A DNA stretch of 64,000 bases from a virus. The stretch is from the IMG/VR virus record IMGVR_UViG_3300027749_000038; one strand, 5' to 3'. Under the pieces are notes generated by a model that made no database searches, was not told where the DNA came from, and worked only from the letters and a program-made list of their open reading frames with translations. Made by a program: the position numbers and the translations under genes. This document shows, piece by piece, positions 39,555 to 42,334 of the stretch; positions within the stretch are counted from its first letter, which is position 1; each line of letters opens with the position of its first letter.

Positions 39555-40022
39555 ATGAATTTTTTAAATTTTTATACCGAAGCTGTTAATAAATTTAACA
39601 CAGAATGGCAGGTTACCAGAGAAGAAGCCAAAAAAATTAAAAATGTAGATGCTAAAATATCACATGTCAAAAAATTTTTAGAAGATAATCCATCCAAAGC
39701 TAATTTGGGCAGGGTCTTAAATTGGACTCGTATGTCTAAGTTGGGTTATAAGAATTCTTCGCCTGAATTGACTCAGAAATTTGAAGATTATCTGGATTAT
39801 CTAGAAGTTAATGCTGATAAATTTTCAGAAGAAGATAAAGATGTAGACCTTAAAGATCTACCAGAAAGTAAATTTATAGCTGTATATAAAGATTTGGTTC
39901 ATAGAAAGAATGATTTCCAACACGGAGGAAAAAGACCGGTTTCTATGAGCCAATATTTGGCTAAAATGGTTCAGGTAGCTAAAGAAAGAGACATTAAGCT
40001 TCCACTAGACCCACAAGCCTAA
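39555..40022 (+). CDS. Hypothetical late protein, 155 aa
   Basis: TAAGTA 7 nt upstream. Confidence 0.6.
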   Translation: MNFLNFYTEAVNKFNTEWQVTREEAKKIKNVDAKISHVKKFLEDNPSKANLGRVLNWTRMSKLGYKNSSPELTQKFEDYLDYLEVNADKFSEEDKDVDLKDLPESKFIAVYKDLVHRKNDFQHGGKRPVSMSQYLAKMVQVAKERDIKLPLDPQA

Positions 40023-40486
40023 CCATCCAGCAACATATCTCCTCTGGTTTTTGAAGATTTACTACCAATCATTTGAGAAATTACCTCATCTCTAGTGGCT
40101 ATAAGAATATTATTAGATGCTGGAAGTCTAGAAACTATATCTTTCTTTCCAGCAATATCCATTTCTTTAAGTTTTACATCTACAGTGGCTTGTTTTTGTT
40201 GTAGATTAATTTTATTCATTGAATCAATAGCCTTGGTTGTGGCTCCTATCAACTGAGCCATAGCAGCAATTTCTTTAGAATCAGCTCCCATAGCAATAGA
40301 ATTTTTAAGACTAGTAATAGCCTCTAAACCAGCTTGAATTACCTCTGAGGTTTTTTTGTATACATATTCATTAACATTTTCATCATTCACTTTTTCTACA
40401 GGACTAGGAGGAATTAATAAAGCAGAAGTAATACTATCTGCTCTAAGGTCTTGTATAATACTATCAATTTCGTTACGGCATTCCAT
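40019..40486 (-). CDS. Terminase small subunit gp16-like
   Basis: Y......E.I..G..AI..L......E.......LI......L...  helical pattern and C-terminal NNILIATRDEVISQM, like the gp16 NN.LF.GST.EL motif. Confidence 0.55.
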   Translation of the reverse strand: MECRNEIDSIIQDLRADSITSALLIPPSPVEKVNDENVNEYVYKKTSEVIQAGLEAITSLKNSIAMGADSKEIAAMAQLIGATTKAIDSMNKINLQQKQATVDVKLKEMDIAGKKDIVSRLPASNNILIATRDEVISQMIGSKSSKTRGDMLLDG

Positions 40487-40487
40487 G

Positions 40488-40521
40488 TTGAATATTTTTT
40501 AATCCAGAGCTATAATACTTA
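40488..40521. promoter_or_regulatory. Overlapping divergent promoters: sigma70-type for dut (+) and late TAAGTA for gp16-like (-)
   Basis: + strand TTGAAT (40488-93), 17 nt, TATAAT (40511-16), 6 nt, ATG 40523; - strand TAAGTA at 40521-40516. Confidence 0.6.
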
Positions 40522-40522
40522 T

Positions 40523-41077
40523 ATGACTAATTATCCTTTTCTATCAGAAATTCACTTTAAGAAAACTCATCCCGAGGCTCTTCTTCCGCGTAGAAATAAT
40601 TCTAATGATACAGGTTATGATCTATTTGCTGTAGAGGATGTTACTATTCCTTCCAAGGGAGATGGAGTTGTCCCAACTGGAATACAAGTAGCAAAGGTAC
40701 CGGAAAATATTTGGTATTTAATTCTTCCGCGATCTGGTATAGGCTTTAAACATGGTATACAACCTCATTTAGGTGTAATTGATAATTGTGTACCAGCTGG
40801 TACTAAAATTCTTACATCAGAAGGAGAAATAAATGTAGAAGATCTTTTTGAAAGAGAAATTAAACCAAACATTATTTCATATCACATCGACTCTCATCAG
40901 CTTCAGGAAGATAATATAAAGGATATGTGGATTGTAGAAAACCGTGAACTTTTTAAAATACATACAGCGGATGGTAATATACTAGAAGTTCCTCCAGAAA
41001 AAGAACTTTATACAAAAAAAGGATGGATAAAAGCTTTGAATTTGACAGAAGGAGATGAAATACTATCAGTTTCTTAA
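40523..41077 (+). CDS. dut: dUTPase N-terminal extein (88 aa) fused to split intein N-half (96 aa)
   Basis: dUTPase motifs 1-3: GYDL, PRSG, GVIDN; then CVPAGTKILT (intein block A, Cys1 at 40787) and a Hint N-domain ending GW.KA.NL..GDEI, then stop. Confidence 0.92.
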   Translation: MTNYPFLSEIHFKKTHPEALLPRRNNSNDTGYDLFAVEDVTIPSKGDGVVPTGIQVAKVPENIWYLILPRSGIGFKHGIQPHLGVIDNCVPAGTKILTSEGEINVEDLFEREIKPNIISYHIDSHQLQEDNIKDMWIVENRELFKIHTADGNILEVPPEKELYTKKGWIKALNLTEGDEILSVS

Positions 41078-41112
41078 TACCATTACCACCACGATATAGG
41101 GTAAGTATACGT

Positions 41113-42069
41113 ATGAAGCACGAACACACATGCCCACAATGTTATATTACATTTTTTAACTCTAAAAAAATTTCTAAATACTGTTCCAAAAAATGCAAAA
41201 TAGAAGCAATGACAATTGCTAAAATTTTAAAGTGTGAACTTTGTTTAAAACCATTCAAATCTACAGATTTACAACGGCGTTTTTGTTCTGTTTTGTGTTC
41301 ATCAACTGCACATAAAAATCGCAAAATTTTAGAATGTTTATATTGTTTTAAAAAATTTGAAGTTATGGGATATATGGCTTTAAAAACAAAATATTGTTCT
41401 CGAGAATGCAGTTCAAAAGATATAAAATTAAAAGGTATTTTAAAAGTTCCAGAATCTGAAAAAAATGTTTTTAGCAAGAAATGTAATAACTGCCAAAAAG
41501 ATTATAAAGTTTGGGGATACAGGAAAGAAATTTCAAAATATTGTTCAACTAAATGTCGTTATGAAACTGGTAGAATTTCTTGTATATGTTCAATATGTAA
41601 AACTTCTTACGAAGAAGAATATAATGTCTATTGTAACAGCTTTAATGTTAAACACAAATGTAAAAATTGTAGAGAATTAAATTCAACTTCCTCTTTTGAG
41701 TTGGATGTAAGGTTGTTCCTTAAACAAAATGGATTTAAATTTTCAACGAACCAGGCTGTAGCAAAACCAAACAAAAGGGGATATGTGTATCCAGACATTG
41801 TTTGTGGCAATATTATTATTGAATGCAATGGTGATTTTTTTCATTGCAATCCGGAAATTTATTCATCTTCTTTTATAAATCCTCGCACATTAAAAACTGC
41901 ACAAGAAATTTGGGACCATGACAAGTATAAAAGAGACCTTTATATGGAATGTGGTTATAATGTAATTGTTGTGTGGGAATCAAAGTGGAAAAATCAGATT
42001 CACCAACTAGAAATTTTAAATATTCTTAAATCTTATGAAAATAACCCACTCCAAAGTGACAAAAATTGA
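41113..42069 (+). mobile_element. Free-standing Vsr/DUF559-like (EDxHD-type) homing endonuclease gene with C2C2 zinc-finger repeats
   Basis: Four clear CxxC.K.F-x(8-11)-(Y/F)CSxxC repeats plus a variant; C-terminal S.FE..V...L...G, YPDI, IIIECNGDFFH, D..K....GY.V.V.WE. It lies between the two intein halves. Confidence 0.8.
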
Positions 42070-42334
42070 AAAATCAACTTCTAAAGACATTTTTTATTTA
42101 TCTGTAAAAAATAACGCCAATTATTTTGCTAATAAGCTTTGTGTACACAATTGCTATCGTGGCGATCTGGGAGTTAAATTATATAATTTTTCTAATACAG
42201 ATCATAAGGTGTTAAAGGGAGATAGAGTAGCTCAAATAGCTTACTTTCCGTTGATATCTCTCGAACCACAGTGGTCAGAAGAAGTAGAAGAAACCGACCG
42301 AGGAGCTAACGGCTTCGGTCAATCAGGAAAATAA
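42035..42334 (+). CDS. dut: Split intein C-half (39 aa) fused to dUTPase C-terminal extein (60 aa)
   Basis: Lys-rich IntC ending NYFANKLCVHN, then +1 Cys (42152) and CYRGDL (rest of motif 3), GDRVAQ (motif 4), RGANGFGQSG (motif 5). Confidence 0.92.
   Translation: MKITHSKVTKIEKSTSKDIFYLSVKNNANYFANKLCVHNCYRGDLGVKLYNFSNTDHKVLKGDRVAQIAYFPLISLEPQWSEEVEETDRGANGFGQSGK

Follow-up and report, generated by a model that had tools for sequence, protein, structure and literature searches.

A phage dUTPase gene fractured by a predicted split intein, with a Vsr-like endonuclease gene between the halves

A dUTPase gene (dut) that is broken into two open reading frames (ORFs) was examined at positions 40,523 to 42,334 of IMG/VR virus record IMGVR_UViG_3300027749_000038, a 64,000-nucleotide stretch of DNA referred to here as the window. 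The gene is interrupted within motif 3 by a cassette that encodes the N-terminal half (IntN) and the C-terminal half (IntC) of a split intein and, between them, a predicted endonuclease. Based on hidden Markov model (HMM), fold, and comparative evidence, we consider it probable that the cassette is mobile and that trans-splicing by its intein restores the dUTPase. The anatomy of the locus, the Hint and Vsr folds of its products, an empty allele in a close relative, signatures of recent transfer, and conservation throughout a family form the basis from which we infer endonuclease activity and, above all, splicing.

ORF finding and translation give three ORFs, all on the plus strand. ORF1 (40523-41077; ATG at 40523, stop at 41075-41077) encodes an N-extein made up of dUTPase residues 1-88 (40523-40786), which covers motifs 1-3a and ends in GVIDN, followed by the 96-residue IntN (Cys1 to Ser96) and a stop (40787-41077). 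ORF3 (42035-42334), which starts 35 nt within ORF2, encodes the 39-residue IntC (42035-42151), with VHN at its C-terminus, and a C-extein (42152-42334) of 60 residues and a stop, comprising Cys+1, YRGDL, and dUTPase motifs 3b-5. The junction residues are therefore Cys1 at 40787, His38-Asn39 of IntC, and Cys+1 at 42152, as in a class 1 intein. The Pfam trimeric dUTPase profile PF00692 matches ORF1 over profile positions 5-74 of 129 (7.1e-11) and ORF3 over positions 69-129 (1.1e-10), and the five dUTPase motifs are present in order across both halves. PDB dUTPases match ORF1 down to 1.7e-13 and ORF3 down to 1.4e-13, and the solved enzymes align on both sides of the break, which lies in the motif GVID-x-D/G-YRG. 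Either half by itself scores under the whole-protein cut-off of TIGR00576, as expected because the gene is split. The two exteins sum to 148 residues (88 + 60), the length of an uninterrupted allele on IMG/VR contig L002. The ORF layout, the junctions, and the 148-residue sum given in a preliminary description of this DNA are exact.

Over 4 kb to either side of the locus, contig L002 (131.5 kb) shares approximately 94% identity with the window, and it supplies the intein-free dut allele that had been proposed as a check. Its uninterrupted dut encodes 148 residues and reads GVIDNGYRG at the place of insertion, the empty site being GGAGTGATTGACAAT directly followed by GGTTATCGCGGA, and no intein N-terminal match is found in the 131 kb of this contig. 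Compared with L002, the window is longer by exactly 1365 bases (40787-42151) and shows a GGT to TGC change at the +1 codon. Since the L002 gene is uninterrupted and of full length, the 1365-bp cassette is a clean insertion. It sits in frame in motif 3, between Asn88 and the next codon, and its removal restores the host motif. The N-extein differs from the empty allele by one amino acid in 88, and the C-extein shows no difference in the 40 residues displayed past the junction, save for Gly versus Cys at +1.

The distribution of substitutions around the cassette is uneven. There are 16 dut differences between the window and L002, nine of which lie within 17 nt upstream or 12 nt downstream of the insertion point. 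The upstream tract (40769-40783, plus strand) holds five synonymous differences, all at most 17 nt from the insertion point; the downstream tract (42152-42163, plus strand) holds four in 12 nt, including the GGT to TGC change that converts Gly to Cys+1. Divergence close to the junction is thus 9/29 (31%) versus 1.7% in the rest of dut (P = 3e-5 even against the 6% background of flanks and genome). The downstream tract, TATCGTGGC, is common to the window and to L003, a carrier of a 45%-identical version of the locus, but not to the near-isogenic L002. This pattern looks like co-conversion from a donor or target-site immunity. In addition, a second carrier from a different metagenome, L001, has a cassette with only 4 differences in 1365 nt from that of the window, compared with 4.2% divergence in the flanks (P about 2e-20). 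Judged by these divergences, the cassette is younger in the two genomes than the divergence of the genomes from each other. Together, the junction-clustered substitutions and the low divergence of the cassette point to recent homing. The predicted site-specific double-strand cleavage of the empty allele has only indirect support, from the presence/absence polymorphism, the junction tract, and the low cassette divergence.

The +1 residue had been taken in the preliminary description as a sign of selection for a splice nucleophile. In 38 empty alleles of this dUTPase clade, the position is occupied by G, P, Q, S, or M, and it is Gly in L002. Because the position is naturally variable, Cys+1 came with the cassette and was tolerated, and its presence is no sign that selection acted on the host gene.

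Both intein halves are matched by Hint-domain profiles. TIGR01445 (intein_Nterm) gives a full-length match at ORF1 residues 89-164 with 33.1 bits, above its cut-off of 24.5. PF14890 (Intein_splicing) matches IntN over positions 4-93 of 155 (2.3e-6) and IntC over positions 118-155 (6.4e-5), with 27.9 and 23.2 bits for the two halves; the gathering score for the whole domain is 35.8. This coverage puts the break in the loop that separates blocks B and F, its usual place. Block A of IntN reads CVPAGTKILT. IntN was modeled with AlphaFold from 34 family sequences (alignment A1), giving a predicted local distance difference test score (pLDDT) of 90.6. Among the matches listed, every Foldseek match of this model in the PDB is a Hint domain, from inteins, a bacterial intein-like domain, or hedgehog. 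The model aligns with the RecA mini-intein at a query-normalized TM score (TMq) of 0.82 and a root-mean-square deviation of 2.0 Å, with the Npu DnaE N fragment at TMq 0.82 and target-normalized TM score (TMt) 0.78, and with NrdJ-1 (8ubs) at TMq 0.72. The Hint-domain match on which the preliminary description had made its reading depend is thus present, in the TIGR01445 hit, in PF14890 on both halves, and in the fold of IntN. The charge complementarity that it had pointed out is also borne out to the exact counts: IntN has 19 D/E and 10 K/R (net −9), and IntC has 7 K/R and 2 D/E (net +5). It is a family-wide trait, with net charges of −3 to −14 for IntN and +1 to +6 for IntC.

ORF2 (41113-42069, plus strand) encodes a 318-residue protein between the IntN and IntC ORFs, and its 3′ end overlaps the IntC ORF by 35 nt (42035-42069). 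A sequence-only search of the PDB with this protein returned almost nothing, so a fold search was required. The AlphaFold model has pLDDT 84-92 over residues 190-313, and Foldseek with this nuclease domain returns Vsr (1cw0, 1vsr), I-Bth0305I (3r3p), and 3hrl at probabilities of 0.98-1.00. The matches to 1cw0, 1vsr, and 3r3p are each at 1.00, and TMt for 3r3p, the catalytic domain of I-Bth0305I, is 0.65-0.72. Pfam MTES_1575 is matched in 8/8 endonuclease relatives and DUF559 in 3/8. TIGR00632 (vsr) gives a weak match at 0.039 (residues 190-290 against positions 19-118 of 119), and the endonuclease family profile finds Vsr and 3hrl, also weakly, near E = 0.1-0.5. The C-terminal Vsr-like/EDxHD nuclease domain thus spans residues 190-318 and the stop (41680-42069). 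The N-terminal region (residues 1-189; 41113-41679) is an FCS-type zinc-finger array, presumed to bind DNA, with four to five CxxC...[FY]CSxxC fingers whose Cys columns are invariant. The family profile matches the FCS finger 2l8e at 2.7e-4, Pfam zf-FCS and zf-FLZ matches occur in family members, and the model of this region consists of repeated hairpin-helix modules. Compared with relatives of 277-295 residues, the window protein has an extra zinc-finger unit at 41227-41313 (residues 39-67), where pLDDT is below 50. The sequence matches are weak but consistent, and together with the modeled Vsr-like fold they identify the middle gene as a predicted homing-type endonuclease.

The window locus belongs to a family of split dUTPase inteins. 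An exhaustive HMMER protein search with IntN yields 220 representative clusters at E ≤ 1e-3; in 39 of the best-scoring 75 of these, IntN directly follows dUTPase motif 3 and ends the protein. Split dUTPase N-halves make up dozens of 50%-identity clusters, and the Pfam dUTPase profile matches 30 of the 34 family rows scanned. A scan of IMG/VR combined with an HMM pass finds about 50 loci, among which 23 IntN sequences are distinct, and at every locus the ORF stops at the end of IntN; this locus scan used a 10-sequence alignment, the 34-sequence alignment being too diverse. All loci with a recovered C-half have an intervening ORF of 277-358 residues, whose 3′ end is usually overlapped by the IntC ORF. 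The 45%-identical version of the locus is found in L004 as well as in L003. Cys1 is invariant in the family. The C-terminal His-Asn is present in 18/18 distinct C-halves recovered, and +1 is Ser in one of them and Cys in the others. The ratio of nonsynonymous to synonymous substitution (dN/dS) for IntN is 0.09-0.30 in eight pairs drawn from both subfamilies described below. No frameshifted or truncated intein occurs among the about 50 loci, save for a C-half in L051 (2076-2243) whose extein is shortened to about 20 residues, with HN followed by CSYNINDKDRGSNGFGSTGV; this allele may be decaying. A nucleotide search of cultured phages gave no match. Likewise, tblastn against 50,697 phage records revealed no fractured dUTPase among the matches listed (30 of 82 records for IntN and 12 of 113 for ORF1), which are distant inteins in terminase and portal genes and ordinary dUTPases.

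The IntN tree separates two subfamilies with support of 98/93. The window falls in subfamily 1 (CVPxGT...), which goes with the zinc-finger/Vsr-like nuclease. In subfamily 2 (CFSEDM...), the accompanying nuclease is of another type: it combines a C2H2-like finger at its N-terminus with repeated W..(D/E)Y(R/K) motifs and the canonical PD...ExK signature. The carriers of this subfamily are L044, L051, L053, L056-L059, L066, L068, L081, L100, and L102. Intein subfamily and nuclease type therefore co-vary. Among the candidate EDxHD catalytic residues, E237 and H244 are invariant across both types of endonuclease, D270 is invariant, and D228 is nearly so.

Two insertion registers are used in the family. 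Most alleles have G-x-I-D↓Cys...HN↓Cys-[DGS]-Y-R-G (arrows mark the junctions). The window, L003, L004, P0012, P0013, and P0026 have the register one codon downstream, G-x-I-D-N↓Cys...HN↓Cys-Y-R-G. Both registers occur within one dUTPase clade, in which P0002 has GEID↓C and L125, an empty relative, has GEIDNGYRG. The IntN tree, built on only 96 columns, would call for two or more changes of register. Three further proteins depart from the common layout. P0052 has a contiguous, unsplit mini-intein in a dUTPase, in the D↓C register, with TxxQ in block B and without an endonuclease. MAFFT placed the N-half block B under the IntC region when P0052 was included, and the window IntN was folded instead. 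P0052 is a cis-splicing relative of the split family and may show what the element looked like before invasion by the nuclease gene. P0034 and P0042 are in other types of host and carry a complete intein followed, a few residues on, by a second IntN that ends the protein. In P0034, the two inteins lie 7 residues apart in a CxxxCxxC motif resembling a radical-SAM cluster site.

The catalytic blocks of the family are unusual. In almost all family members, the Thr/His pair of block B is missing. Subfamily 1 has an invariant block B Lys together with a Pro that is conserved to at least 90%; subfamily 2 has Thr-x-x-Ser/Thr, with Gln or His in a few members. In the window, block B reads PPEK where TxxH is expected, with the Lys codon at 41000-41002. 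Alignment with the canonical P0044 (CTPEH) and other members with TPDH or TPEH places VPPEKELYTKKGW of the window such that Thr is replaced by Pro and His by Lys; the same segment aligns with block B of the RecA intein, ATPDHKVLTEYGW. The block F residues of the window are Tyr21 and Ala28; in most relatives, the first of these positions is Asp or His and the second is His. Ala28 is also found in an 85%-identical relative.

These observations can be assembled into a proposed mechanism. The predicted endonuclease would cut cassette-free dut alleles of co-infecting relatives, and recombinational repair would copy the cassette, along with a few flanking bases, into the cut allele. The two halves of the dUTPase would then be made as separate proteins, at little cost to the host. 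The oppositely charged intein halves (net −9 and +5) would associate into one Hint domain, which would trans-splice via Cys1, the terminal His-Asn, and Cys+1 to give a normal 148-residue dUTPase reading GVIDN-C-YRG. Splicing in this scheme would have to proceed with Pro and Lys where block B normally has Thr and His, and with neither the Asp nor the His of block F; since these residues are missing, splicing competence is the predicted rather than the observed part of the scheme. On balance, we lean slightly toward the view that the dUTPase inteins are a large phage clade that splices efficiently without the block B His, with Lys or Ser/Thr in its place, and that the window member does so without the block F Asp and His as well.

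Several observations weigh against this reading. The window intein has no block B Thr-x-x-His, and it also lacks the block F Asp and His, which makes it more deviant than most of its family. The block B His has been described as essential in many inteins, and a bulky −1 residue has been proposed to compensate sterically (PMC6333167). The −1 residue is Asn in the window and Asn or Asp in the family; because it is not bulky, such compensation is not obviously applicable here. TIGR01443, the profile for the C-terminal splicing region, scores 15.3 on ORF3, just under its cut-off of 15.6; on the relative L003 it scores 18.0, above the cut-off. No Shine-Dalgarno sequence precedes ORF3. The fractured genes of Dassa et al. 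2009 have a 5′ untranslated region RNA hairpin, often with TATAAATA, in 15/16 loci (PMC2677866), and the window has none. In the 35-nt spacer before the endonuclease gene (41078-41112, plus strand), a hairpin is not supported (minimum free energy −9.1 kcal/mol, fold z-score −0.19), nor is one supported around the IntC start. TATAAATA is absent from 41040-41112 and is not enriched in the window.

One alternative that takes up the missing block B and block F residues of the window copy is that the intein halves are splicing-dead and serve only for non-covalent docking of the dUTPase fragments, for which the fragmented NrdA of phage Aeh1 (PMC3045599) offers an analogy. Charge complementarity and purifying selection would be equally expected of a pure docking domain. 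However, Cys1, His-Asn, and the +1 nucleophile are useless for docking, yet they are kept in dozens of diverged lineages, and the Gly to Cys change at +1 arrived with the cassette. The motif 3 Asp of dUTPases is catalytic. An unspliced Hint domain of 135 residues, only one residue away from it, would probably ruin the active site, and we regard docking alone as unlikely.

A different possibility is that a selfish endonuclease cassette has inactivated dut, with the phage doing without dUTPase and the intein halves left as decaying remnants. The cassette is indeed polymorphic for presence among close relatives, and the window copy deviates more from the intein consensus than its relatives do. 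This explanation nevertheless seems quite improbable. Two independent assemblies both have the three ORFs intact, and the exteins are nearly unchanged from the empty allele, with every dUTPase motif kept. The about 50 loci, save for L051, are free of broken inteins, and the dN/dS of IntN is well below 1. That the structure is an assembly chimera joining the cassette to a phage dut would be in line with the general risk of metagenome assemblies, and with nothing more specific. The identical architecture was assembled independently in L001, from another metagenome; the 45%-identical version is present in L003 and L004; and about 45 further contigs carry the architecture. Moreover, reading frames and host motif alike are regained without error, and both half-proteins are on record from other sources. 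A chimera is thus hardly credible.

With a mobile cassette and trans-splicing as the favored reading, the locus can be placed among known systems. The fractured-gene layout of Dassa et al. 2009 invoked in the preliminary description fits in lengths, overlap, charge pattern, and phage context. [quoted passage not shown] The window IntN (96 residues) falls within their range of 88-105, IntC (39 residues) within 33-54, and the overlap of 35 bp, similar in most related loci, within the 6-69 bp of 15 loci. The hosts that they report are gp41, IMPDH, DnaE, NrdA, NrdJ, DNA ligase, and terminase; dUTPase is not mentioned among them (PMC2677866). Furthermore, no T4-type late-promoter box is found before the endonuclease gene of the window, its N-terminal region is an FCS zinc-finger array, and the window has Pro and Lys in block B, whereas in their inteins all five catalytic residues, the Thr and His of block B among them, are retained. 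Thus the layout has been known since 2009, and the dUTPase host and the chemistry of blocks B and F would appear to be a new variation. The earlier suggestion that dUTPase might be a new host holds for the papers: full-text search of a library that is incomplete and does not extend to supplementary intein catalogues found none describing a dUTPase intein. It does not hold for the databases, in which dozens of clusters and about 50 IMG/VR loci are already deposited.

I-Bth0305I (Taylor et al. 2011, PMC3239194) is the prototype for the EDxHD enzymes, a family that developed from the Vsr-like genes in fractured genes. The C-terminal nuclease domain of the window protein shares the Vsr-like fold and conserved acidic and His residues of I-Bth0305I, although sequence similarity is too low for a direct HMMER link. 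I-Bth0305I is located in a group I intron, whereas the window endonuclease is free-standing within a split intein, and the described EDxHD members have N-terminal NUMOD/helix-turn-helix motifs (PMC3239194) in contrast to the four to five zinc fingers found here. As for known inteins without the block B His, they keep the junction nucleophiles, as the window does, but they are contiguous and archaeal, and their compensating Lys lies outside the standard blocks. A basic residue is said, in work by Tori and colleagues from 2012, to compensate in Tko CDC21-1. In the subfamily of the window, by comparison, the Lys is at the His position itself, where the sister subfamily has Ser or Thr and a few members Gln or His, and the family is large, phage-borne, and naturally split, with splicing as the predicted activity. 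Like gp41-1, NrdJ-1, and Npu DnaE, the window intein is split between blocks B and F; it also has their fold, and its IntC resembles gp41-1 and Spl DnaX in sequence. It differs from characterized split inteins in its 12-26% identity, its non-canonical blocks B and F, and its Cys1/Cys+1 pair; gp41-1 and NrdJ-1 have Ser at +1.

The genome neighborhood in this uncultured phage is that of a T4-like myovirus, with genes for major head protein, portal, thymidylate kinase, clamp loader, and baseplate wedge. A sigma-70-like promoter match (TTGAAT, 17-nt spacer, TATAAT; 40488-40516, plus strand) ends 6 nt 5′ of the dut ATG; it is a consensus match only, at 10/12 positions, and such matches are no commoner in the region than in its shuffles. 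No Shine-Dalgarno sequence precedes the dut ATG; the message may lack a leader, or Shine-Dalgarno pairing may be dispensable in the host. Divergently adjoining dut is a minus-strand ORF of 155 residues (40019-40486) with no PHROG match. Its homologues occupy the same position in L002, L003, L031, and L125, marking it as a conserved unknown of this phage group. A TTG at 40451 was considered as the start of ORF1 and rejected; ORF1 would then overlap the divergent upstream gene, and the start is unsupported by relatives.

For the phage, the cassette is an ordinary selfish element from which little phenotype is expected. The near-isogenic empty allele, the junction tract, and the scarcely diverged cassette make it a clean natural example of such an element caught spreading, and its family uses two insertion registers one codon apart in the same gene. 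Protein ligation makes standard use of split inteins, and only a handful of host genes have supplied the natural ones employed. The dUTPase split inteins form a well-populated and diverse family with a Cys/Cys pair and Pro-x-x-Lys in place of Thr-x-x-His. If the dUTPase intein splices, it offers a direct test of how the first acyl shift is catalyzed without the block B His, and the interest in it would rise with a demonstration of such splicing. The family would then represent a second widespread natural way to activate the N-terminal scissile bond and a pool of new, possibly mutually orthogonal, split-intein pairs.

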